A program made the translations under genes and the position numbers. From a virus (lineage: Duplodnaviria; Heunggongvirae; Uroviricota; Caudoviricetes), in IMG/VR virus record IMGVR_UViG_2718218131_000002: a stretch of DNA of 64,000 nucleotides. One strand, 5' to 3'. The notes below the pieces were generated by a model that searched no databases, was not told where the DNA came from, and saw only the letters and a list, made by a program, of their open reading frames with translations. Every line of letters begins with the position of its first letter. Positions within the stretch are counted from its first letter, which is position 1. Below are positions 2,496 through 63,630 of the stretch, in pieces.

Positions 2496-3390
2496 ACGCC
2501 CACTGGTTATAAACACGCAGCTGGCAATGAAAATTGGCTTAAACGAAGCCATTGTTTTGCAACAACTGCACTACTGGTTGAGAGATACCAACTCCGGCAT
2601 GGAATGTGATGGTGTTCGCTGGATTTATAACACAACGGAACAATGGCTGGAACAGTTCCCATTCTGGTCAGAGTCAACGTTAAAGCGCGCGTTTGCAAGT
2701 CTGAAAACGCTGGGGCTTTTGCGTTGTGAAAAGCTCAATAAATCAAAGCGCGATATGACCAATTTCTACACGATCAACTACGGGAGCGAGCTTTTAGATG
2801 GTGGCAAATTGAGCGAATCCATCGGTTTAAAATGCGCCGCTCCATCAGGTCAAAATGACACGATGGAAGAGGTCAAAATGAAACGCTCCATTGGTTCAAA
2901 ACGACTCAATGTCATCGGGTCAAAATGGCCTGATGATCTTACAGAGAATACAACAGAGATTACTACAGAGAATAAAAAGACTTCTCGTCCGGAAGCTTCG
3001 CAACCGGACCCGCAGACGGTTGAACAGGATTTTTTAACCCGACACCCTGACGCGGTTGTGTTCAGTGCGAAAAAACGCCAGTGGGGCAGCCAGGAAGATT
3101 TGGCGTGTGCGCAGTGGATCTGGGGGCGAATCGTGAGTCTTTACGAGCAGGCCGCCAGCGATGATGGCGAGATTTCGCGACCGAAAGAACCCAACTGGAC
3201 CGCATGGGCCAACGACGTGCGCACAATGCGGATGCTGGATGGCAGAACTCACAGACAAATTTGTGAAATGTTTGGTCGGGTGCAGCGGGATCCATTCTGG
3301 GTAAAAAATATCATGAGTCCGTCAAAGCTTCGCGAAAAATGGGATGAACTGGTTATCCGCCTGGGCGTTCGTCTGTACAGCGTTGTGTGA
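2476..3390 (+). CDS. Phage replication initiation / replisome-organiser protein (N-terminal HTH, DnaT-like C-terminal region)
   Basis: Probable start at MSLLFAERPLVINTQLAMKIGLNEAIVLQQLHYWL...; occupies the position of the lambdoid O gene. Confidence 0.55.
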   Translation: MSLLFAERPLVINTQLAMKIGLNEAIVLQQLHYWLRDTNSGMECDGVRWIYNTTEQWLEQFPFWSESTLKRAFASLKTLGLLRCEKLNKSKRDMTNFYTINYGSELLDGGKLSESIGLKCAAPSGQNDTMEEVKMKRSIGSKRLNVIGSKWPDDLTENTTEITTENKKTSRPEASQPDPQTVEQDFLTRHPDAVVFSAKKRQWGSQEDLACAQWIWGRIVSLYEQAASDDGEISRPKEPNWTAWANDVRTMRMLDGRTHRQICEMFGRVQRDPFWVKNIMSPSKLREKWDELVIRLGVRLYSVV

Positions 3391-20344: not shown

Positions 20345-20671
20345 ATGACTAAAAATACTCGTTTTTCCCCCGAAGTCCGTCAGAGGGCGATTCGTATGGT
20401 TCTGGAAAGTCAGGGCGAATATGACTCACAGTGGGCGGCAATTTGTTCCATTGCCCCAAAGATTGGCTGTACACCGGAGACTCTGCGTGTCTGGGTACGC
20501 CAGCATGAGCGGGATACCGGAGGCGGTGATGGCGGGCTCACCACCGCTGAACGTCAGCGTCTGAAAGAGCTGGAACGTGAAAATCGTGAACTGCGCCGCA
20601 GTAACGATATCCTTCGCCAGGCTTCCGCTTATTTTGCAAAGGCGGAGTTCGACCGCCTCTGGAAAAAGTGA
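20345..20671 (+). CDS. IS3-family transposase OrfA (108 aa)
   Basis: [55 protein letters not shown]. Confidence 0.85.
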
Positions 20672-21558
20672 TGCCACTGCTGGATAAGCTGCGTAAGCTG
20701 TACGGGGTCGGACCGGTATGCAGTGAACTACATATTGCCCCGTCAACGTATTACCACTGTCAGCAACAGCGACATCATCCTGATAAACGCAGTGCCCGTG
20801 CGCAGCGCGATGACTGGCTGAAGAAAGAGATACTGCGCGTATACGATGGGAATCATCAGGTATACGGTGTGCGTAAAGTCTGGCGTCAGTTGTTACGGGA
20901 AGGAATCAGGGTAGCCAGATGTACAGTGGCGCGCCTCATGGCGGTTATGGGACTTGCCGGTGTTCTCCGGGGTAAAAAGGTCCGCACTACCGTCAGCCGG
21001 AAAGCCGTTGCCGCAGGCGACCGCGTAAACCGTCAGTTTGTGGCAGAACGTCCTGACCAGTTGTGGGTGGCTGATTTTACTTACGTCAGCACATGGCAGG
21101 GGGGCGTCTATGTGGCGTTCATCATTGATGTGTTTGCCGGATACATCGTGGGGTGGCGGGTCTCATCGTCTATGGAAACGACATTCGTGCTGGATGCTCT
21201 GGAGCAGGCGTTATGGGCCCGTCGACCGTCCGGCACAGTCCATCACAGTGATAAAGGTTCTCAGTATGTATCGCTGGCCTACACACAGCGGCTTAAGGAA
21301 GCCGGATTACTGGCATCAACAGGAAGTACTGGTGACTCGTATGACAACGCGATGGCGGAGAGCATCAATGGCCTTTACAAAGCGGAGGTAATACACCGTA
21401 AGAGCTGGAAAAACCGGACAGAAGTGGAGCTGGCCACACTCACGTGGGTGGACTGGTATAACAATCGACGATTGCTGGAAAGGCTGGGCCATATCCCACC
21501 GGCAGAAGCAGAAAAAGCTTATTATGCTTCCATCGGAAACGATGATCTGGCAGCCTGA
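20668..21558 (+). CDS. IS3-family transposase OrfB (296 aa; DDE integrase core)
   Basis: Overlaps orfA in the -1 frame; DDE catalytic region. Confidence 0.85.
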
Positions 21559-21686
21559 GTTCACAGATAAAACACTCTCCAGGAAACCCGGGGCGGTTCA
21601 GTTTGATGGCGTAGATGCACGTTGTGACATGTAGATGATAATTATTATCATTTTGCGGGTCCTTTCCGGCGATCCGACAGGTTACG

Positions 21687-21698
21687 GGGCGGCGACCT
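21687..21698. other. cosN cohesive-end site of the prophage (lambda-type)
   Basis: GGGCGGCGACCT followed by CGCGGGTTTTCGCTATTTATGAAAATTTTCCGG, matching the lambda left end, about 180 bp upstream of Nu1. Confidence 0.75.
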
Positions 21699-21875
21699 CG
21701 CGGGTTTTCGCTATTTATGAAAATTTTCCGGTTTAAGGCATTTCCGTTCTTCTTCGTCGTAACTTAATGTTTTTATTTAAAATACCCCCTGAAAAGAAAG
21801 GAAACGACAGGTGCTGAAAACGAGCTTTTGGGCCTCTGTCGTTTCCTTTCTCTGTTTTTGGCCGTGGAATGAACA

Positions 21876-22395
21876 ATGGAAGTCAACAAAAAGCAGCTGG
21901 CTGACATTTTCGGTGCGAGTATCCGTACCATTCAGAACTGGCAGGAACAGGGAATGCCCGTTCTGCGAGGCGGTGGCAAGGGTAATGAGGTGCTTTATGA
22001 CTCTGCCGCCGTTATAAGATGGTATGCCGAAAGGGATGCTGAAATTGAGAACGAAAAGCTGCGCCGGGAAGTTGAAGAACTGCGGCAGGCCAGCGAGACA
22101 GATCTCCAGCCAGGGACTATTGAGTACGAACGCCATCGACTTACGCGTGCGCAGGCCGACGCACAGGAGCTGAAAAATGCCAGAGACTCCGCTGAAGTGG
22201 TGGAAACCGCATTCTGTACTTTCGTGCTGTCGCGGATCGCAGGTGAAATTGCCAGTATTCTCGACGGGATCCCCCTGTCGGTGCAGCGGCGTTTTCCGGA
22301 ACTGGAAAACCGACATGTTGATTTCCTGAAACGGGATATCATCAAAGCCATGAACAAAGCAGCCGCGCTGGATGAACTGATACCGGGGTTGCTGA

Positions 22396-22421
<26 letters not shown>
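21876..22421 (+). CDS. nu1: Terminase small subunit Nu1
   Basis: MEVNKKQLADIFGASIRTIQNWQEQGMPVLRGGGKGNEVLYD..., 181 aa, lambda Nu1. Confidence 0.9.
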
Positions 22422-26102
<3,681 letters not shown>

Positions 26103-28886: not shown

Positions 28887-28996
28887 ATGACGAAAGATGA
28901 ACTGATTGCCCGTCTCCGCTCGCTGGGTGAACAACTGAACCGTGATGTCAGCCTGACGGGGACGAAAGAAGAACTGGCGCTCCGTGTGGCAGAGCT
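28887..28996 (+). pseudogene. FI: DNA-packaging protein FI, 5-prime fragment (interrupted by an IS21-family element)
   Basis: MTKDELIARLRSLGEQLNRDVSLTGTKEELALRVAEL then reads into IS sequence. Confidence 0.7.
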
Positions 28997-29198
28997 TGCA
29001 AAATGGCATCTGAATCGATCGCAGTTTGGCATTCGAATCGATCATGATTTGGCATCCATCTCCGATCACAGTTTGGCATCACAATCGATCACGATTTGGC
29101 ATGCTTCCGATCATTGATTGGCATCCTGCCAGTCACTCCGGGAATTAACTCTTTTCACCACAGTCTCCATTGCCGTGTTTAAACCAGTGGAGACGTCA

Positions 29199-30764
29199 AT
29201 GTCCAGAAAGAGAAAATCCAGGAGCACTATGGAAACCTGTTTTAAGATTCTTCAGCTCAAGTTCGACAAGAAGCTGACTAACCGTTGTATCGGACTGACG
29301 TTACACATCAGCGCCTCAACCGTTTTTGAGGTTCTTGCCCGCTTCAAAGCCTCTTCTCTGTCATGGCCATTACCTGCTGATATATCCCATGACACGCTGG
29401 AGAAACTCATTTTTCCGCCCAAAGACACCTTTGCATCAGAGCTTGTAATGCCTGACATGTTGTACCTCGATACGGAAATGAGAAAACCAGGTGTGACGCG
29501 GCAACTGTTGTGGATGGAATACAAGGCACAGGCGGGTAACAAAGCGATGGGATACTCGCACTTCTGCCGTTGCTACCGGGAGTGGAAAAAAACGCGACGT
29601 CTCTCCATGCGCCAGGAGCATCGTGCCGGCGAAAAGCTTTTTATCGACTTCTGTGGTCCTACGGTTCCTGTTATTAATCCGGACACCGGTGAGATACGCC
29701 GCGTGGCAATCTTCGTGGCCGTAATGGGGGCGTCCAACTATACCTACGTTGAAGCGTGCGAAGGTCAGGACATGATGTCATGGTTAAATGCCCACAGCCG
29801 TTGCCTGACCTTCCTGGGCGGCGTACCGAAGCTGCTCATCCCCGATAACCTCAGAAGCGCAGTGAAAAAGGCCGATCGATATGAGCCTGTCATCAACGAC
29901 AGTTATCAGGCACTGGCTGAGCACTATGGCACGGTTATCATCCCGGCCCGACCACGCAAACCTAAAGATAAACCAAAAGCAGAAAACGGCGTCCTCATCG
30001 TCGAACGATGGCTTCTTGCCCGCATCCGTAATGAAACCTTCCACACGCTCAGGGCGCTGAATGCGCGCCTTAGGGAGTTACTGACAGACATGAATAACCG
30101 GCCAATGAAGGGGTACGGCAATCAAACCCGTGCAGAACGCTTCCGCATACTGGATGCGCCAGCACTCTCTCCGCTGCCTCTGGCACCTTATGAATACACG
30201 GAATACAAAGCTGTGAAGGTTGGCCCTGACTACCACGTTGAATATGCCCGTCACTGGTACTCCGTTCCACACGAACTGGTCGGTCAGCGTCTGTCACTGA
30301 AGGCGGGGCAGTCGGTGGTACAGCTCTGGCACAAGGGGCAGTGTGTGGCGCAACATCCGCGCAGCACACATGAATATAAACACACAACCAATCCGCTTCA
30401 CATGCCAGAGCGCCACCGGCAGCACGGGACATGGACACCGGAACGCCTGATCGAGCAGGGAAAACGTACGGGCCCGTCCACAGGCCGGGTGGTTGAATCC
30501 ATGCTGAAGGCAAAACCCCATCCGGAACTGGCTTATCGTGCAGTTCTGGGGCTGCTGGCACTTCAGAAAAAATACGGCCCGGAACGGCTGGAAAAGGCCT
30601 GTTACGTTGCCCTGCACTATAACGCCCCTGACAGACGCTTTATCGACAATCTGCTGCGTCACCATCGGGAGAACCTGGAGCTTCCATTATCCCGCCAGGG
30701 CGAACAACATCCGGCATATGCTTCAGAGCATGAAAACCTGCGTGGTCCGGGCTACTACCACTGA
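29199..30764 (+). CDS. istA: IS21-family transposase IstA
   Basis: Probable start MSRKRKSRSTMETCFKIL; N-terminal HTH and DDE core. Confidence 0.8.
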   Translation: MSRKRKSRSTMETCFKILQLKFDKKLTNRCIGLTLHISASTVFEVLARFKASSLSWPLPADISHDTLEKLIFPPKDTFASELVMPDMLYLDTEMRKPGVTRQLLWMEYKAQAGNKAMGYSHFCRCYREWKKTRRLSMRQEHRAGEKLFIDFCGPTVPVINPDTGEIRRVAIFVAVMGASNYTYVEACEGQDMMSWLNAHSRCLTFLGGVPKLLIPDNLRSAVKKADRYEPVINDSYQALAEHYGTVIIPARPRKPKDKPKAENGVLIVERWLLARIRNETFHTLRALNARLRELLTDMNNRPMKGYGNQTRAERFRILDAPALSPLPLAPYEYTEYKAVKVGPDYHVEYARHWYSVPHELVGQRLSLKAGQSVVQLWHKGQCVAQHPRSTHEYKHTTNPLHMPERHRQHGTWTPERLIEQGKRTGPSTGRVVESMLKAKPHPELAYRAVLGLLALQKKYGPERLEKACYVALHYNAPDRRFIDNLLRHHRENLELPLSRQGEQHPAYASEHENLRGPGYYH

Positions 30765-30780
30765 CAGAAGGAACAACAGT

Positions 30781-31536
30781 ATGAGTGATAACCTGTTAAA
30801 CAAACTGACCCAACTGAAACTCCCGGCGATGGCCGGGAGCCTGATACGGCAGCGGGAAACGCCTCAGACCTACGACGAACTGTCGTTCGAGGAAAGGCTG
30901 ACGCTGCTGGTTGATGACGAGCTTCTGAGCAGGGAAAACAGCCGTGTGGCACGGTTGAGAAAAAATGCCGGCCTGAAATACCAGGCAACACCGGAAGGGC
31001 TGCGCTATCCGGCCTCAAGAGGTCTGCGGGCTGAACAGATGAGAGAACTGCTGAACGGCCACTACATAACCCACAGGAAAAACCTGCTGATAACCGGTCC
31101 GACAGGATGTGGCAAGAGCTGGATAGCCAATGCGCTGGGCGAACAGGCATGTCGACAGAAACACAGCGTCCGGTACTGTAGAACCGGGCGATTACTGGAA
31201 CAACTGGCTCAGGGACGTGTTGATGGCAGCTGGCTGAAATATCTGAAACAGTTGCAAAAAATACAGGTTCTAATCCTGGACGATCTGGGGCTGGAACAGT
31301 TAAGTAACGCCCAGTGTAATGACCTTCTGGAGCTCATAGAGGATCGTTACGGACAAAGCAGCACGATAGTGGTAAGCCAGTTCCCGGTAGATAAATGGCA
31401 TGGTCTGATGGAGAACCCAACAACAGCAGATGCCATCCTGGACAGACTGGTACATAACTCACACCGGGTGGTCCTTCAGGGAGAGTCACTGAGGAAAAAT
31501 CCCCCGGTAGTGGAAAGCAGCGAAAAAACGCGTTAA
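30781..31536 (+). CDS. istB: IS21-family helper ATPase IstB
   Basis: Walker A GPTGCGKS and Walker B LILDDLG; 251 aa. Confidence 0.8.
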   Translation: MSDNLLNKLTQLKLPAMAGSLIRQRETPQTYDELSFEERLTLLVDDELLSRENSRVARLRKNAGLKYQATPEGLRYPASRGLRAEQMRELLNGHYITHRKNLLITGPTGCGKSWIANALGEQACRQKHSVRYCRTGRLLEQLAQGRVDGSWLKYLKQLQKIQVLILDDLGLEQLSNAQCNDLLELIEDRYGQSSTIVVSQFPVDKWHGLMENPTTADAILDRLVHNSHRVVLQGESLRKNPPVVESSEKTR

Positions 31537-31635
31537 AAAGCGGTAGAAAAAGTTAAGTTCCCGGTTGATCGAATGGATGCGAATCGCTGATCGGACTTCG
31601 ATGCCAATCCGTGATCGAATAGAGCGGAATACGCA

Positions 31636-31931
31636 CAGAGCTGGAAGAGGAGCTTGATGACACGGATGAAACTGCCGGTCAGGACACCCCTCTCAGCCGG
31701 GAAAATGTGCTGACCGGACATGAAAATGAGGTGGGATCAGCGCAGCCGGATACCGTGATTCTGGATACGTCTGAACTGGTCACGGTTGTGGCACTGGTGA
31801 CGCTGCATACCGATGCACTTCACGCCACGCGGGATGAACCTGTGGCATTTGTGCTGCCGGGAACGGCGTTCCGTGTCTCTGCCGGTGTGGCAGCCGAAAT
31901 GACAGAACGTGGCCTGGCCAGAATGCAATAA
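31636..31931 (+). pseudogene. FI: FI 3-prime fragment
   Basis: In-frame continuation LEEELDDTDETAGQDTPLSRENVLTGHENEVGSAQPDTVILDTSELV...ERGLARMQ matches the lambda FI C-terminus. Confidence 0.7.
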
Positions 31932-55427: not shown

Positions 55428-55616
55428 GTGTTAAGCACTGATCGGTTTATACGTGAAAAAGAATGCGAAAAGCTAACAGGCCTTAGCCGCTCATGCCGCT
55501 ACCGCCTGGAAAAGGCCGGACAATTCCCATCACGGCGTAAGCTGGGCGGTCGTTCCGTTGGCTGGTCTTTATCCGAAGTTCTGGCATGGAAGGACAGCTG
55601 CGAGGCAGTTCACTAA
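55428..55616 (+). CDS. alpA: AlpA-family phage regulatory protein (excisionase-like HTH)
   Basis: 62 aa LTGLSRSCRYRLEKAGQFPSRRKLGGRSVGWSLSEVLAW. Confidence 0.55.
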   Translation: MLSTDRFIREKECEKLTGLSRSCRYRLEKAGQFPSRRKLGGRSVGWSLSEVLAWKDSCEAVH

Positions 55617-56123: not shown

Positions 56124-56630
56124 GTTAATTACACCTCATGTAATGTATTTATGTGTAGTGACACATTACACACAATCAGCACAAAAAGCAAAGCCCCGCA
56201 AGTGTCGTTACCACTGGCAGGGCTTATAACCACAAACCGTTATGAGAGGTAGTTTTATGGCTGTAAGACAGCATACCCCACGCCTAGCGCACACACAAAC
56301 GGCCTTTGTGTGGCGTAATCGATTTCATGATTTCACTTTTCACAATCAGCCAGGCGGTCGGTTTTTGCCGGATTTAAGCCGCCGTGGGTATTTATCGACA
56401 AAATCTTCAAGGGCAAATTTTTCTGGTGGCACTAAGCGCGGCGCTGGTGGTGGTATTTTTGTTCTGGTTAGTTCTTCCTCAAGTCTGGCGCAGGCTTCTG
56501 ACTGCCTTTGCCGGATGATTTCATCATCTTGCGTTTGCGTGTCTTGTATTGGTGATAGTGTGTTGTTGGTCATGATACTGCCCTGTAAAGCAATGCGCCG
56601 TAGTACCTCACACCACGGCGCTAGTGATGG

Positions 56631-57522: not shown

Positions 57523-57822
57523 ATGAGAACATATTTATCTGGCTTGACTGCCAGCGGTTATGCACACCCAAAAATTATCCCCGGCGCTATTTATCTGGAT
57601 AAGAACGGTAACAGAGTAACGGTAAAAGAACTGATGTTTGACCGTGTTTATTTTATTCGTGATGGATATTCATTTCTTAGTTCGCTGAACGTGGAGATCT
57701 TTATTTGCAGATTCCGGCGGGAAATCCCGACTTCCAGAAATAACCATGTGTCACGTGTGGATGTGGATAAAAAACTACAGGAACTGAAAAACATGATTGC
57801 CGCGTGGAGAGAGCAGAAATGA
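57523..57822 (+). CDS. Hypothetical protein (99 aa)
   Basis: ORF tightly packed between the neighbouring genes; overlaps the primase start. Confidence 0.35.
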   Translation: MRTYLSGLTASGYAHPKIIPGAIYLDKNGNRVTVKELMFDRVYFIRDGYSFLSSLNVEIFICRFRREIPTSRNNHVSRVDVDKKLQELKNMIAAWREQK

Positions 57823-59636
57823 AAAAAGCGCCAAATTTAAAACACCAGCCGCGTGACAAAATGACGGAAGTCATCATTTTTGCGGGTAGTGATGCGTGGG
57901 CACATGCGAAGCAGTGGCAGGAACAGGACGGGCGACTGGCTGGCGATAACGTGCCACCTGTCTGTCTTGGAGAGCAACAACTTGCCGAACTGGACAACCT
58001 GCAAATCGTACCGGACGGACGCTATCGCGTGCGTCTCTACCAGGCGGGGTTATTGCGTCCGGGGCTTGTTAATACCATCGGGCAGAAACTGGCAGCGGCA
58101 GGTGTCAGGGATGCTGATTATTACCCTGAAGGAATGCACAGCCAGAAACGGGAGAACTGGCGCGAATATCTGGAACGTGAACGGGCAGAGCAGGCGGAAA
58201 AGAAAAAGGTAGTTGAACTGCCTGTAAAGAAAAAAGAGCGGGTAAAAGACGATAACGCTTCATCACTGGCGCTTAACCAGATGGGAGCAAGTCAACGCGG
58301 CGAAGTTCTCCTGGCACATTATGGCGGTGAACTGGCGATTCATGCTGACTCTGACACTGTTCACCATTACAACGGCGTTGTATGGGAGCCAGTACAGGAT
58401 AAAGAATTACAGCGAGCTATGGCACAGATTTTCATTGATGCGGAGATCAGCTATTCGCAGAACGCCATTAAATCGGCGGTCGATACCATGAAGTTAAGTT
58501 TGCCTGTAATGGGGAATACAGCCCGTAACCTGATTGGATTCAGTAACGGGGTATTTGATACCAGAACAGGTAATTTTCGGGAGCATAACAAAAACGACTG
58601 GTTGTTAATTGCCAGTGAATTACCTTTCAGCCCACCAGCAGAGGGGGAAACGCTGGCAACACATGCGCCGAATTTCTGGAAGTGGTTACGCCGTTCGGTG
58701 GCTGAGAATGACCGCAAGGCGGATCGCGTACTGGCTGCATTATTCATGGTGCTGGCGAACCGGTACGACTGGCAGTTATTCATTGAGGTAACAGGTCCAG
58801 GGGGAAGTGGTAAAAGCGTGATGGCGGAGATTTGCACCATGCTGGCGGGTAAGGCTAATACAGTATCAGCGAGCATGAAGGCGCTGGAAGATGCAAGGGA
58901 ACGCGCGTTAGTGGTTGGCTTTTCGCTGATTATCATGCCGGATATGACCCGCTACGCTGGTGATGGGGCGGGAATTAAGGCTATTACAGGCGGTGACAAG
59001 GTGGCAATCGACCCAAAACATAAAGCCCCATATTCAACTCGTATCCCGGCAGTAGTGCTGGCGGTTAACAATAACGCTATGTCATTCAGTGACCGCAGTG
59101 GGGGGATCTCACGTCGTCGGGTGATATTCAATTTTTCGGAAGTTGTACCGGAGAACGAACGTGATCCAATGCTGGCGGAAAAAATAGAAGGTGAGCTGGC
59201 GGTAGTGATTCGCCATCTGCTTACACGGTTTGCTGACCAGGACGAAGCCAGACGCCTGTTATATGAGCAGCAGAAATCTGAAGAAGCACTGGCGATAAAG
59301 CGAGAGGGGGATTCGCTGGTGGACTTCTGCGGCTATCTCATGGCGTCGGTAATGTGTGATGGCCTGTTAGTGGGTAATGCTGAAATTGTGCCATTCAGCC
59401 CACGCAGGTATCTCTATCATGCCTATCTGGCTTATATGAGGGCACATGGGTTTGGTAAACCTGTAACACTGACGCGCTTCGGTAAAGATATGCCGGGGGC
59501 AATGGCGGAATATGGCAGGGAGTATATGAAACGGAAAACGAAGCACGGTTTGCGTTCAAACGTGACACTGACGGAGGAATCAGAAGACTGGATGCCATCA
59601 TGTGTATCGGTCACTAATGACGATAGCAAAAATTAA
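57819..59636 (+). CDS. P4-alpha-type primase/helicase (satellite replication protein)
   Basis: Walker A GPGGSGKS in the C-terminal half; primase-like N-terminal region; followed by TGTTCACC iterons. Confidence 0.8.
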   Translation: MKKAPNLKHQPRDKMTEVIIFAGSDAWAHAKQWQEQDGRLAGDNVPPVCLGEQQLAELDNLQIVPDGRYRVRLYQAGLLRPGLVNTIGQKLAAAGVRDADYYPEGMHSQKRENWREYLERERAEQAEKKKVVELPVKKKERVKDDNASSLALNQMGASQRGEVLLAHYGGELAIHADSDTVHHYNGVVWEPVQDKELQRAMAQIFIDAEISYSQNAIKSAVDTMKLSLPVMGNTARNLIGFSNGVFDTRTGNFREHNKNDWLLIASELPFSPPAEGETLATHAPNFWKWLRRSVAENDRKADRVLAALFMVLANRYDWQLFIEVTGPGGSGKSVMAEICTMLAGKANTVSASMKALEDARERALVVGFSLIIMPDMTRYAGDGAGIKAITGGDKVAIDPKHKAPYSTRIPAVVLAVNNNAMSFSDRSGGISRRRVIFNFSEVVPENERDPMLAEKIEGELAVVIRHLLTRFADQDEARRLLYEQQKSEEALAIKREGDSLVDFCGYLMASVMCDGLLVGNAEIVPFSPRRYLYHAYLAYMRAHGFGKPVTLTRFGKDMPGAMAEYGREYMKRKTKHGLRSNVTLTEESEDWMPSCVSVTNDDSKN

Positions 59637-60588: not shown

Positions 60589-60800
60589 ATTCTGCAAACA
60601 AAAAGATGCCGGAAAAAAAATAGATTTTCCGGCATGCTACATAAATCCCGACCAAAGGAAGTAAATACATTAACACGAATTATCAGCACTGAAGTTGTCA
60701 CGGCATATTTTATACAACATTGCACTTGGTTGCATGTATTCGCATAGCAGACATCGGTAATAGAATATATTCACAATTATTTGTAATGAATGTAAAGAGG

Positions 60801-61847
60801 ATGAGTATGGTTGACTTATATTCGCCTACACAGCTTGTGCAGGTGGCTAATGCTGAAGATGTGCAAAAAAAATTAAATGCGTTGTTTACCAGTTTGTTTT
60901 TCACTCGCTCGGTAATGTTTGAATCGAGAGACATTATTCTTGATACGATCGACGATCCAAATATCCCGATCGCGGCGTTTTGCTCTCCTATGGTGGGCAG
61001 TAAAGTTTCACGAGATGAGGGATACGAATCAAAAACAATTCGCCCTGGCTATATGAAACCGAAAAGCAGCATTGATCCAAATAAGTTAGCTGTGCGCCCT
61101 GCTGGTGTATCACCTGAGCAATACAATGCTTTTGGAGCGCGTAATATTAAAGTTAAACAGGCGATTGTAAATCAGGCTAAAGCTATTCGTGCACGTATTG
61201 AATGGCTTGCCGTTCAGGCAATCACAACGGGGAAAAATATCATTGAGGGCGATGGCATTGAACGTTATGAACTGGACTGGAATATAAAACCACAAAATAT
61301 TATCACGCAGTCCGGCGGTGCTGAGTGGTCAGGTAAGGATAAAGAAACTTTTGATCCAAATGATGATATTGAGAGCTACGCAGAATTTAGTGAGGGCGTC
61401 ACTAATATCATCATTATGGGCGGTAATGTATGGAAGAAATACCGTTCATTCAGAGCGATAAAAGAGGCTCTGGATACCCGTCGTGGTTCTAATTCCGAAC
61501 TGGAAACGGCCCTTAAAGACCTTGGTGATTCGGTGAGTTTTAAAGGGTATATGGGCGATGTTGCGATTGTTGTATACAGCGGGCGTTATACCGACGAGGA
61601 CGGAACTGAAAAACATTTCCTTGATCCTGATTTGATGGTGCTTGGCAATACGGCTCTTCAGGGGATTGTCGCCTATGGCGGTATTCAGGATCCGGAGCTA
61701 ATCCGAATGGGGCTGACTAAAGCCGAACTTGCACCGAAAAACTATATTGTGCCTGGTGATCCGGCTATTGAATATGTGCAGACACATTCAGCACCACAGC
61801 CAATACCGGCCCGCATCAATCGTTTTGTTACCGTTCGCATTGGCTAA
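60801..61847 (+). CDS. Major capsid protein homologous to lambda E, carried by the satellite
   Basis: 348 aa starting MSMVDLYSP; conserved blocks TQSGGAEWSGKDKETFDPNDDIESYA and TRRGSNSELETALKDLGDSVSFKGYMGDVAIVVYSGRY parallel lambda E. Confidence 0.8.
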   Translation: MSMVDLYSPTQLVQVANAEDVQKKLNALFTSLFFTRSVMFESRDIILDTIDDPNIPIAAFCSPMVGSKVSRDEGYESKTIRPGYMKPKSSIDPNKLAVRPAGVSPEQYNAFGARNIKVKQAIVNQAKAIRARIEWLAVQAITTGKNIIEGDGIERYELDWNIKPQNIITQSGGAEWSGKDKETFDPNDDIESYAEFSEGVTNIIIMGGNVWKKYRSFRAIKEALDTRRGSNSELETALKDLGDSVSFKGYMGDVAIVVYSGRYTDEDGTEKHFLDPDLMVLGNTALQGIVAYGGIQDPELIRMGLTKAELAPKNYIVPGDPAIEYVQTHSAPQPIPARINRFVTVRIG

Positions 61848-61856
61848 GGGGGAGCA

Positions 61857-62198
61857 ATGGCTACTCATTACACTGAACTCATGGCTGGCACTGAAGCACT
61901 GGTGACTACGCTGGGGATATTTTCAGCTAATAAAGGGGTAATTCCTGCATTTACGCCACTGATGCAGGAAGATGCAACAGGTGCACTGGTGGTATGGGAT
62001 GGTTCGAGCGTAGGTAAAGCGGTTTATGTTTCCGCTGTACAAATCGACACCGCGAAAAAAACACAGGCTCAGGTCTATAAGACAGGTGTCTTAAATGTTG
62101 ATGCTCTGAACTGGCCTGAGTCTGTAAAAGAACTGTCAGTAAAGATTGCAGCGTTTGTTGGCTCAGGTATTTCTGTTCAGCCGCTGGCTCGTGTGTAA
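61857..62198 (+). CDS. Head decoration protein homologous to lambda D
   Basis: 113 aa; FTPLMQEDATGALVVWDGSSVGKAVYVSAVQ...AAFVGSGISV parallels lambda D (TPLMLDT...[17 protein letters not shown]...[10 protein letters not shown]). Confidence 0.7.
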   Translation: MATHYTELMAGTEALVTTLGIFSANKGVIPAFTPLMQEDATGALVVWDGSSVGKAVYVSAVQIDTAKKTQAQVYKTGVLNVDALNWPESVKELSVKIAAFVGSGISVQPLARV

Positions 62199-62209
62199 AG
62201 GGGGATACA

Positions 62210-62593
62210 ATGCAGAATCATTACAATGACCTTAAGCCAATTGCCGAAATGATGTATCCGGATCCAGCAGTAGAGGAATTAAAGGCTATTGCTGACAAAA
62301 TGCGTTTAAGTGAACGCCTTGTTGATATGAATCAGGTGATGGAACTTACTACCCTTAGCCGTCGCACATTGCTAAACCTTGAGGCTCGCGGAGAGTTCCC
62401 CGAACGCGTACAGGTTACGGAAGGGCGTAAGGCCTGGTATTTAAGTGAAGTGATCGACTGGATAAACAATATTCCTCGATCTTCTGAATATTGCCGCGTA
62501 CCTGTCCCAAAAAAGCCAGATGCGGCGCTATGCCTCAAGATTGAGCGTGTACGTCGCAATGCACGGGATGGTCGCTATAAGTTGATTGGTTGA
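62210..62593 (+). CDS. Hypothetical protein with AlpA/MerR-like HTH in its C-terminal half
   Basis: LTTLSRRTLLNLEARGEFPERVQVTEGRKAWYLSEVIDWI. Confidence 0.4.
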   Translation: MQNHYNDLKPIAEMMYPDPAVEELKAIADKMRLSERLVDMNQVMELTTLSRRTLLNLEARGEFPERVQVTEGRKAWYLSEVIDWINNIPRSSEYCRVPVPKKPDAALCLKIERVRRNARDGRYKLIG

Positions 62594-62649
62594 TGAAATT
62601 AGGGCCCGTTCTGGCTGGCGGGTCCTTTCCGGCGATCCGGTAGGCTACG

Positions 62650-62661
62650 GGGCGGCGACCT
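62650..62661. other. cosN-like site of the satellite
   Basis: GCGGGTCCTTTCCGGCGATCCGG...ACGGGGCGGCGACCT...GTTTTCGCTATTTATGA closely matches the prophage cos at 21650-21720, then diverges. Confidence 0.65.
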
Positions 62662-62794
62662 TGCGCGTTTTCGCTATTTATGAGCCTTTTTCGGGTGCTG
62701 GTGGTGGTTTTGTTGTTCGCTCTATCTCTATGAATAAAAAGGAAAAGATAAAACCAATACACCAACCTGAAACATTACTTAAGTGGGGATATTG

Positions 62795-63337
62795 ATGAAA
62801 TCGTACCTGATGAACAAAAAAAACATGGCGCAAAGCTGCCGTGTAAGTGCGACAGCGTTCGACAAGTGGGGAGTGACTCCCGTTGAACGTAAAGGCCGCG
62901 AGGCGTTTTATGATGTTGCCAGCGTAATAGACAATCGGGTTAGCAATGCAATTAACCAGATTACAGACGACAAAGGCGAGATTGATAATGATGAACTTTT
63001 ACGAGTCAGGATCAGATTACTGACAGCACAGGCGGAGGCGCAGGAACTTAAAAACGAGCGCGATCGCGGTGACGTGATTGATACAGAGTTTTGCATGTAC
63101 GCGCTTTCAAAACTGGCGAGTCAGATTTCATCAATCATGGACAGCCTCCCGCTTACTATGCAAAGGAGCTTCCCACAGATGGCCCCCGCCATGCTGGATG
63201 GCCTGAAAAAAGAAGTTGTCAGAGCCTGTAACGCATGCACAAAACTTGATGAAAACATCCCGCGAATACTGTCCGATTATCTGATGGAAACTACCGGAAA
63301 TGTGCCTGATAAGTTTCAGCCGGATAAAGACAAGTAA
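62795..63337 (+). CDS. Nu1-like terminase small subunit encoded by the satellite
   Basis: C-terminal two-thirds parallel lambda Nu1 (LTAQAEAQELKNERDRGDVIDTEFCMYALSKLASQISSIMDSLPLTMQRSFP); N-terminal DNA-binding part divergent. Confidence 0.7.
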   Translation: MKSYLMNKKNMAQSCRVSATAFDKWGVTPVERKGREAFYDVASVIDNRVSNAINQITDDKGEIDNDELLRVRIRLLTAQAEAQELKNERDRGDVIDTEFCMYALSKLASQISSIMDSLPLTMQRSFPQMAPAMLDGLKKEVVRACNACTKLDENIPRILSDYLMETTGNVPDKFQPDKDK

Positions 63338-63348
63338 CGTAGCGCACA

Positions 63349-63630
63349 ATGACAGAAGCCGAACTACTGGGATTAATCCGCCGTGTTACCGGAATCAGCC
63401 AGCAGCATGACGAACAGGCCACGCAGCCGGACAGCGTGATCGCCGAAAATTACGTGCGTGTTGTTGCTGATGTAATGCGCCGTGATGGTATTGAGTTTAA
63501 CGGCGTGGATATGCGCGACATACGAATCAGAGTACTAGAGTTGCTGGCATACCGTCGACGCGTGGCGATGTATCAGGAGAGCGCGAAAAACACTTATCAG
63601 TGGAAGAAGCCGGAACGGCTGCGGCGGTAA
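63349..63630 (+). CDS. Hypothetical protein (93 aa)
   Basis: ORF following the Nu1-like gene where lambda would have terminase A; far too short to be a large terminase. Confidence 0.35.
   Translation: MTEAELLGLIRRVTGISQQHDEQATQPDSVIAENYVRVVADVMRRDGIEFNGVDMRDIRIRVLELLAYRRRVAMYQESAKNTYQWKKPERLRR

Follow-up and report, generated by a model that had tools for sequence, protein, structure and literature searches.

Phage-inducible chromosomal islands (PICIs), the small terminases (TerS) carried by SaPIs and the hybrid cos sites of the Rpp islands are already known, and SatelliteFinder lists TerS as a core component of PICIs (PMC10085698). The locus described here lies in a 64,000-nucleotide stretch of Caudoviricetes DNA (IMG/VR record IMGVR_UViG_2718218131_000002; hereafter the window, by which the whole stretch is meant), in which a lambda-like prophage is accompanied by a satellite island with a cos site and a TerS gene of its own. 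The island cos is a hybrid of a helper-type and a private half, and the full-length satellite TerS would probably use it to recruit the large terminase (TerL) of a helper phage to satellite DNA. Neither a cos-type, full-length N15-like TerS with a satellite-only cosB nor its modular evolution was described in the literature searched, which lacked most papers from subscription journals.

The closest described relatives are the Rpp-type cos PICIs (EcCICFT073, with RppA, RppB or RppC; Fillol-Salom et al. 2019, PMC6739421; Murialdo & Feiss 2022, PMC9026076), which belong to the same island family and use the same roxA-phoQ site. EcCICFT073 and the window island have the same gene order (capsid, decoration, small open reading frame (ORF), cos, packaging gene, 93-aa ORF), with rppA in the slot of terS, and in both a helper-type cosQ and cosN is joined to a private, single R3-like cosB without I1, R2 and R1. 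They differ in the packaging protein, which is a 180-aa full-length TerS with a Nu1-type C-terminal part in the window and a 135-154-aa Rpp that needs the helper TerS in the other case. Rpp consists of the DNA-binding domain and dimerisation helices and lacks the TerL-binding C-terminus (PMC9026076). The cosB sequences differ as well (GGTGGTGGT...GTTGTT in the window, ACCACCACC in the Rpp island).

The closest characterised TerS is gp1 of phage N15, with 46% identity overall and 62% in the DNA-binding domain. Both systems have a single R3 site of G/T triplets at bp 48-59, which reads GAGGTTGTTGTT in N15 (PMC4669245) and GCTGGTGGTGGT followed by GTTGTT in the satellite, the two differing at bp 55 and 58. 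The recognition helix is VSATAFDKWG in the satellite and ISVQAFDKWG in N15. Unlike N15, the satellite has neither a TerL of its own nor a counterpart of the remote rR2 site inside the gene.

The pac-type TerS of staphylococcal PICIs (SaPIs) such as SaPI1 and SaPIbov1 is alike in that a satellite TerS pairs with the helper TerL and redirects packaging (PMC6739421). SaPIs differ in headful (pac) packaging, in an unrelated TerS family and in a separate protein, Ppi, which blocks the phage TerS; as the window system is of the cos type, its satellite must also copy the nicking and termination sites of the helper. Two islands, EcCIIHE3034 and EcCI18098, were said to 'encode TerS' and were not mobilised (Fillol-Salom et al. 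2018, PMC6092414). EcCIIHE3034 has the same capsid-decoration-cos-TerS-93-aa layout and a TerS of the same family (WP_000835278.1, a protein shared with the Nissle 1917 island, whose gene is 88% identical to the window gene at the DNA level); EcCIIHE3034 and EcCI18098 differ in integration site (cspD-clpS for EcCIIHE3034). No description of the cos/TerS mechanism of these two islands was found in the literature delimited above. In the manner of helper-embedded PICIs (HE-PICIs such as 11capE; PMC10111431), islands with the same capsid-decoration-AlpA-cos-TerS module lie within lambdoid prophage late genes of E. coli, Enterobacter and Citrobacter, whereas the window copy is chromosomal and not embedded. 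The HE-PICI prototype 11capE is described (PMC10111431) as lacking terS and having about 258 bp of cos in common with its helper. The capsid-forming PICIs (cf-PICIs) are alike in possessing capsid proteins and TerS, but differ in having their own TerL, portal, protease and head-tail connectors.

The hybrid cos site and its small terminase

The elements around the two cos sites of the window are:

62617 to 62684, plus strand: satellite cos core common to helper-type phage (positions -33 to +35), 61/68 identical to prophage 21654-21721
62620 to 62626, plus strand: satellite cosQ (GGGTCCT), invariant in every satellite and phage cos site aligned
62650 to 62661, plus strand: satellite cosN GGGCGGCGACCT, with the same letters as the prophage cosN and lambda cosN
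62696 to 62719, plus strand: private cosB, R3-like site GCTGGTGGTGGTTTTGTTGTTCG, which begins at bp 48, at the R3 position of lambda (bp 50-65) and N15 (bp 48-59)
62755 to 62769 (bp 106-120), minus strand: second conserved block CAATACACCAACCTG, whose reverse complement CAGGTTGGTGTATTG is R3-like, located where lambda has an inverted R2
62795 to 63337, plus strand: satellite TerS, 180 aa (Pfam Phage_Nu1, PHROG 57), with its start codon at bp 146 after cosN
21654 to 21721, plus strand: prophage cos core (cosQ 21657-21663, cosN 21687-21698), followed by a lambda-type cosB with R3 ...CATTTCCGTTCTTCTTCG...

The 12-base lambda cohesive end, an exact cosN, occurs twice in the window (21687 and 62650), as does the cosQ heptamer (21657 and 62620), each copy lying 30 bp 5' of its own cosN. 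When the two regions were aligned without gaps and anchored on cosN, the positions from -33 to +35 around the nick site gave the high identity listed above, and the flanks were at chance level (12/47 upstream of -33 and 52/165 downstream of +35). BLASTN within the window found a match of 62618-62694 to 21655-21731 (88.3% over 77 bp, E=2e-23). The original prediction, that the satellite cos has the cosQ/cosN core of the prophage and a different cosB side, holds in both parts. On the prophage side, cos runs on into a near-lambda cosB, Nu1 and gpA; on the satellite side it runs on into unrelated DNA and then the 180-aa ORF.

This satellite TerS matches Pfam Phage_Nu1 (PF07471) with 81.6 bits (cut-off 30) over residues 64-147 only, and the TerS family PHROG 57 over residues 2-173 (E=9e-50), a family that RppA matches over the DNA-binding domain only. 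It is 36% identical overall to the prophage Nu1, with a gapped N-terminus, and its closest relative in 50,697 phage records is N15 gp1, with the alignment covering residues 3-163. Identity to the phage proteins is distributed as follows:

N-terminal 60 residues: N15 62%, lambda 42%, 21-type 32%
C-terminal 95 residues: N15 45%, lambda 42%, 21-type 38%

For comparison, the C-terminal domains of N15 and lambda TerS are 80% identical. Judged from these alignments, the protein begins with a predicted winged-helix domain of the N15 type (about residues 1-60); its middle part is conserved, and its tail (about residues 126-180), which varies, is homologous to the Nu1 end that binds TerL. The original prediction of a Nu1-like protein with a divergent N-terminal domain was thus right in part. 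The Phage_Nu1 match and the divergence of the N-terminus from lambda Nu1 stand, and the C-terminal part is homologous to Nu1, but at only about 42% identity; the N-terminus is no orphan. Because an N15-type domain coincides with GCTGGTGGTGGT at exactly bp 48-59, followed by TTTGTTGTTCG, the seemingly divergent domain is best read as an N15-type one with its own variant of the N15-type site, and not as a novel type.

Structural comparison gave a profile match of the 15-sequence family to the N-terminal structure of lambda TerS (6HN7_B, E=0.0034, positions 6-84), while a PDB search with the single TerS sequence gave nothing meaningful and the RppC chains in the PDB were matched neither by the satellite TerS nor by its family profile. 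An AlphaFold model from the 15-sequence alignment showed the expected order of strand, helix, helix, wing and long helix at low confidence (pLDDT 58). The satellite TerS keeps 24/31 residues that are invariant across four phage TerS proteins; of the family-invariant positions, P141, K152 and N160 are kept and K157 is conservatively replaced by R. The terS gene is under purifying selection, the ratio of nonsynonymous to synonymous substitution rates (dN/dS) being 0.2-0.3 when E. coli alleles are compared and 0.05 for Enterobacter against Citrobacter, in each of the three protein parts. Over the last 55 codons (63170-63337, codons 126-180), dS between the window and the O157 or Nissle alleles is about 1.0, compared with 0.07-0.23 in the rest of the gene; therefore, the C-terminal tail has been exchanged as a separate module. 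Two tail alleles seem to circulate by recombination, possibly matched to different helper TerLs.

Genes of lambda-like small terminases start 90-190 bp downstream of cosN, with a cognate R3 site at about bp 48-65, and the satellite gene agrees with this pattern. In phages, the C-terminal 40 or so residues of TerS bind the cognate TerL, whose gene adjoins and overlaps that of TerS. No TerL gene follows the satellite terS, nor is there one anywhere in the island up to its right attachment (att) repeat, after which phoQ comes directly (SLK172 locus, see below). The missing downstream TerL distinguishes the satellite TerS from phage TerS, and TerL binding is predicted for its tail from the homology of about 42%. 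A large terminase gene just past the window, which the original prediction had named as the finding that would speak against it, is absent, the island ending at the att repeat 268 bp beyond.

The private cosB is conserved as a block. Scored over bp 47-69 (62696-62718), it is kept at 17-22 of 23 positions between E. coli and the Enterobacter and Citrobacter satellites, and bp 13-24, bp 36-46 and most of bp 70-150 have diverged. The second block, at bp 106-120, is likewise kept in the E. coli, Enterobacter and Citrobacter satellites, amid surroundings that are not, which makes it a candidate for a second TerS site or a promoter element of terS. No N15-style remote rR2 was detected inside terS at 3-5 mismatches. 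A further R3-like motif, GCTGGTGGTGGTATTTTTGTTC, lies 6.2 kb upstream at 56442-56463, in a minus-strand hypothetical ORF (56346-56573); it is identical to 62697-62718 at 20/22 positions and has the same orientation; in shuffled sequence, about 0.02 matches per 20 kb would be expected at up to 5 mismatches. As the satellites of O157, Nissle, IHE3034, Enterobacter and Citrobacter lack it, it was not counted as a remote site.

For a broader comparison, about 170 lambda-type cos sites were collected from IMG/VR by three patterns, two of the form cosQ-N17-cosN and one extended by the satellite cosB, and the downstream content of each site was classified; the unselected IMG/VR scan comprised 118 lambda-type cos sites. 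Each type of TerS DNA-binding domain has its own sequence at bp 48-70:

Lambda-type DNA-binding domain: CGTTTCCGTTCTTCTTCG
21-type DNA-binding domain: CATGTCGGTACTTCTCG
N15-type phages: GGTGGTTGTTGTTT
RppA: GGTGACACCACCACCAC
Satellite type: always G[CG]TGGTGGTGGT[TG]TTGTTGTT

That is, cosB co-varies with the DNA-binding domain of TerS. The satellite type made up 12/118 sites of the unselected scan, and these had the satellite capsid gene upstream in 12/12 cases and TerL downstream in 0/12. TerL was found downstream of all five TerS genes with an N15-type DNA-binding domain and of four of the five N15-like cosB sites; in the fifth (L139), the satellite capsid gene lies upstream and the sequence is cut off ahead of any TerS. 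The satellite cosB/TerS pair was present in none of the 50,697 phage records, no record holding more than the cos core, and TerL follows it at none of the IMG/VR loci that have the pair. The pair thus occurs only in satellites. A sequenced phage was rejected as the source of the TerS, since the best phage match is the 46% of N15 gp1 and the DNA of cosB plus TerS is in none of these records.

The proposed RppA site (bp 49-65; L004 2606-2625) contains ACCACCACCA, which on the other strand reads as the R3 core of the satellite, TGGTGGTGGT (bp 50-59), and the two lie at nearly equal distances from cosN. This may be chance in low-complexity triplet repeats, or a related recognition in opposite orientation.

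In contrast to the constant cosB, the cosQ/cosN half follows the helper. Several IMG/VR contigs have the E. coli version of the module embedded in lambda-like prophages; in two cases the helper cos is lambda-type (contig IMGVR_UViG_3300029613_000327, comprising L123 and L021, and L030), and there the satellite and helper cos are 62/67 identical from -33 to +34 and divergent thereafter. Citrobacter-type satellites (L017 9840-9905; L165 1948-2050) have the cosN GGGCGGCAGCGT, a cohesive end also present in about 20 contigs of lambdoid phages that encode TerS and TerL themselves, and they retain the satellite cosB and TerS. An exact search of IMG/VR with the cos core of the Enterobacter satellite gave no match for its helper; for the embedded islands of Enterobacter and Citrobacter, the 10-kb flanks examined do not reach as far as the helper cos.

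The island, its variants and the co-resident prophage

The island is an EcCICFT073-like PICI of 10.5 kb with a full-length TerS in the Rpp slot. The window is 100% identical to E. coli SLK172, in which the island lies between roxA (ycfD) and phoQ, a site also occupied by EcCICFT073, the model PICI of Gram-negative bacteria, and by the O157:H7 island. It is bounded by 26-bp direct repeats 10.5 kb apart, the right copy being located 268 bp past the window end (equivalent to window 64268-64293). The ORFs from 53.8 to 63.6 kb come in the order integrase, AlpA, D5-type primase, single-stranded DNA-binding protein (SSB), gpE-family capsid, gpD-family decoration, second AlpA-like protein, cos, TerS-like protein and 93-aa ORF, and the annotated features are:

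53777 to 53802, plus strand: left att repeat CGGTGTAGTTAATGGTGTAGTTAATT, the longest exact repeat shared by the two island flanks in SLK172 locus L001, which is identical to the window
53803 to 55053, plus strand: tyrosine integrase at the left end of the satellite (Pfam Arm-DNA-bind_3 and Phage_integrase)
55428 to 55616, plus strand: AlpA-type regulator, 62-aa ORF (RefSeq: helix-turn-helix transcriptional regulator)
57804 to 59636, plus strand: primase/helicase of the pri-rep module (Pfam D5_N, DUF5906, Pox_D5)
60795 to 61847, plus strand: lambda gpE-family major capsid homologue (Pfam Phage_cap_E, E=4e-41), 55% identical to EcCICFT073 c1499
61857 to 62198, plus strand: lambda gpD-family head decoration homologue (Pfam HDPD)
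62210 to 62593, plus strand: second AlpA-like helix-turn-helix protein directly 5' of cos (Pfam Phage_AlpA, PHROG 2790)
63349 to 63630, plus strand: conserved 93-aa protein without assigned function (PHROG 1561), 77% identical to its EcCICFT073 counterpart

The call of the first AlpA leans on the Pfam match PF05930 (Phage_AlpA) of the equivalent 62-aa gene in the related satellites L005 and L006. The second AlpA-like gene accompanies the cos/TerS module in the Enterobacter and Citrobacter satellites, and the 93-aa ORF comes after TerS or Rpp in all compared islands. With an integrase at the left end, AlpA, a primase-replicase, genes mostly in one direction, a length of about 10 kb and att repeats at a dedicated site, the island has the gene content and layout of a PICI. 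Classification as P4-like was rejected, as psu, delta and sid are absent, and so was classification as a cf-PICI, as TerL, portal, protease and head-tail connectors are missing. No lysis, tail, portal or TerL genes were found in the island, and its late genes are only the gpE-like, gpD-like and TerS-like ones.

The module is widespread. terS plus cosB (at least 80% coverage) was detected in 763/5,426 complete E. coli genomes (about 14%), including O157:H7, O145, Nissle 1917 and ATCC 25922, and the rppA/B region in 110 of the same genomes, so that the module is about 7 times more frequent (RppC not being counted). In Enterobacter and Citrobacter, it occurs in islands inserted in gene E of lambdoid prophages, with a TerS of about 57% identity. 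These data bear on the possibility that cos core and TerS are functionless leftovers of a decaying lambdoid or N15-like prophage, a notion which might draw on the several phage-derived late genes of the island (capsid, decoration and TerS) and on the failure of EcCIIHE3034 to be mobilised in the one published test (PMC6092414). It is hardly credible, however, given a module that is intact in so many E. coli genomes and in other genera, purifying selection, a constant architecture and the conservation of short non-coding motifs.

Natural variants recombine the parts of the system. Chimeric TerS proteins of 194 aa (P0100-P0105), encoded by the roxA-phoQ islands L005-L007 (L005 9780-10585), have the satellite C-terminal part, 93-99% identical to that of the window, behind 101 N-terminal residues that closely resemble the 21-like TerS of CFT073 prophage 4 (88-97% over the 60 residues scored for most of these proteins; 68% for P0104). 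The junction lies at the conserved AQADAQELKN motif, and the chimeras carry a 21-type R3-I1-R2-R1 cosB and a cosN with one mismatch, GGGCGTCGACCT. This hints that the satellite tail, besides the DNA-binding domain, carries a satellite-specific function.

Other arrangements were seen as well. Two IMG/VR loci (L083 and L104) have the same capsid-decoration-AlpA module with a helper-like lambda-type cosB and without TerS; after cos, they encode a 198-199-aa protein beginning MSADKEVMTRIELSG... or MNPCAEVMTTISLGG..., to which no function was assigned. EcCICFT073 has a second, inverted cos (L004 about 3200-3310, minus strand), the cosB of which, GGATCCATGTCCGGTTTCTCT, is almost the same as in one group of lambdoid phages, where TerL follows a 169-aa TerS starting MATQTEVARHLSLTDRQL. 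Because of this match, the second cos of EcCICFT073 looks like a copy of the complete cos of a second helper type, which is relevant to a question raised in the literature, namely why two cos sites are present in some PICIs. In L026 (IMGVR_UViG_3300028982_000003), a satellite whose TerS is identical to that of the embedded copies L021, L028, L030 and L040 has inserted behind a truncated portal-like ORF (290 aa) in a phage that has an N15-type TerS of its own, the N15-like cosB GGTGGTTGTTGTTT and a TerL only 65% identical to lambda gpA. Compared with the other embedded copies, this means that one satellite TerS meets at least two helper terminase types.

The co-resident lambda-like prophage has intact Nu1 and A genes:

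21876 to 22421, plus strand: prophage Nu1, lambda-type TerS, 181 aa (Pfam Phage_Nu1, 337 bits, full length)
22396 to 24321, plus strand: prophage gpA, TerL, 641 aa, 98-100% identical to the TerL of prophages with an embedded satellite module

The TerL genes of the helpers in L123/L021, L030, L027, L040 and L043 account for this last range, and the prophage gpA is a candidate partner of the satellite TerS. Insertion sequences (IS) lie at 20345-21558, 28887-31931 and 45528-46502. An IS3 element ends about 100 bp upstream of the prophage cosQ, and two genes are split, the DNA-packaging gene FI by IS21 (istA/istB) and the gene of the side tail fibre by ISApl1; the prophage may be unable to form particles unaided. 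Its right end carries espO and espK (46886-48583), which encode type III secretion effectors, just before the chromosomal segment with potAB, pepT and roxA that lies between prophage and satellite.

Proposed packaging of satellite DNA

The original prediction had proposed that the satellite hijacks packaging through a private TerS. The comparison lends good support to this proposal by the lack of TerL, the co-variation of cosB and DNA-binding domain, the restriction of the pair to satellites, the helper-matching core and purifying selection. In the mechanism considered probable, cosQ, cosN and bp 13-35 would be the half read by TerL, a half that is kept matched to lambda-like helper phages, and the cosB half is replaced by the single N15-style R3 GCTGGTGGTGGTTTTGTTGTTCG, presumably of no use to TerS of the lambda and 21 types. 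The satellite TerS would bind this site by its N15-type winged-helix domain and, to judge from homology, recruit the helper TerL by its Nu1-like C-terminal part. The helper TerL would then nick the lambda-type cosN, and satellite concatemers, probably of about 4 x 10.5 kb, would enter heads built by the helper. Lambda heads accept roughly 38-51 kb, and a 10.5-kb island would thus be packaged as about four units. Packaging of phage-length concatemers (about 45 kb) is reported for an E. coli model PICI in PMC10111431, which cites Fillol-Salom 2018.

A precedent exists for such a hybrid. A cos composed of lambda cosQ, lambda cosN and N15 cosB was packaged by N15-specific TerS plus lambda TerL, with 2.5-3.5 prophages per induced lysogen, and gave only about 1e-4 with lambda or 21 terminase (Feiss et al. 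2015, PMC4669245). By analogy, the satellite cos should go unrecognised by a lambda-type helper as long as no satellite TerS is there, and the helper TerS itself would presumably be excluded from this site. [quoted passage not shown]

The same result enters into another explanation, in which the satellite TerS is mainly an interference device that titrates TerL or poisons the helper terminase, satellite DNA being packaged via the shared core by whatever terminase forms. Interference is a conserved trait of PICIs, with Rpp doing both jobs (PMC6739421), and packaging of lambda DNA by the N15-specific terminase suggests that exclusivity at the DNA level may be one-sided. However, pure interference would not need the tight co-conservation of cosB and DNA-binding domain across genera, cos sites with a missing or mismatched cosB are cut poorly and inaccurately by lambda terminase (PMC9026076), and neither lambda nor 21 terminase makes use of the N15-type cosB (PMC4669245). 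This explanation is accordingly regarded as distinctly improbable.

Several observations weigh against recruitment of the helper TerL by the satellite TerS. In its C-terminal part, identity to phage TerS proteins is just 38-45%, a distance as large as that between lambda and 21, whose TerS/TerL pairs have been reported not to be interchangeable. One and the same satellite TerS is embedded in helpers with a TerL 99% or 65% identical to gpA, so that direct and specific binding of TerL is not self-evident. The chimeras with a 21-type cosB imply that the private cosB is dispensable in some lineages, which keep the satellite tail. The model of the protein is of the low confidence given above, and the split FI gene and the other IS insertions mean that the co-resident prophage may not be a competent helper. 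In addition, EcCIIHE3034, despite a TerS of the same family, was not mobilised when tested (PMC6092414).

Some of these points could also be accommodated by an Rpp-like mode of action. Here, the satellite TerS would co-assemble with the helper TerS via the central region, the mixed oligomers would prefer the satellite cosB, and the helper TerS would be required for contact with TerL, just as EcCICFT073 requires it. In line with this, terS sits in the rppA slot of the same island backbone, and the stretch best conserved relative to phage TerS is the central AQA(D/E)AQELKN / F-x3-LS-x2-A-x2-I-x-SI-x-D-x2-PL, which corresponds to the oligomerisation part and is exactly the region in which the natural chimeras recombine. 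The C-terminal tail is poorly conserved in comparison with every phage TerS, and the same satellite TerS occurs in helpers with divergent TerLs. Against co-assembly, the satellite protein has 180 aa, whereas Rpp proteins have 135-154 aa and lack the TerL-binding C-terminus (PMC9026076). The tail region is under purifying selection (dN/dS about 0.2) and keeps P141, K152 and N160, with R for K157, and there is no sequence similarity to RppA (BLASTP E=1.4). An Rpp-like mode is therefore considered unlikely, and recruitment of the helper TerL by the satellite TerS itself remains the preferred explanation.

Meaning for cos-type islands

Genes for virulence, resistance and defence against phages are transferred at high frequency by PICIs, and so far Rpp is the only packaging mechanism worked out for enterobacterial cos-type PICIs. 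If the satellite TerS recruits the helper TerL as proposed, this would explain how these islands gain packaging priority. The mobilising phages would become predictable as any with a TerL that accepts the cosQ/cosN half and the TerS tail, and a compact orthogonal cos/TerS pair would be available for engineered transducing particles. The chimeric and allelic variants are material for studying how lambda-family TerS reads R3 and how the TerS tail selects TerL.

It may further be suggested, as a tentative extension, that the cosB/TerS pair represents a separate packaging specificity of the lambda family, standing beside those of lambda, 21 and N15 and confined to satellites. It would work in a plug-and-play manner, with a DNA-binding domain and cosB that are the same in different genera, a cosQ/cosN half rewritten to suit the TerL of each local helper (GGGCGGCGACCT or GGGCGGCAGCGT) and tail alleles swapped to fit different TerLs. 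If this holds true, cos-type PICIs of enterobacteria would predominantly be packaged by means of a full TerS and not of Rpp, and Rpp could be a derived, truncated solution, which bears on the question asked in 2019, 'what is the origin of Rpp?'

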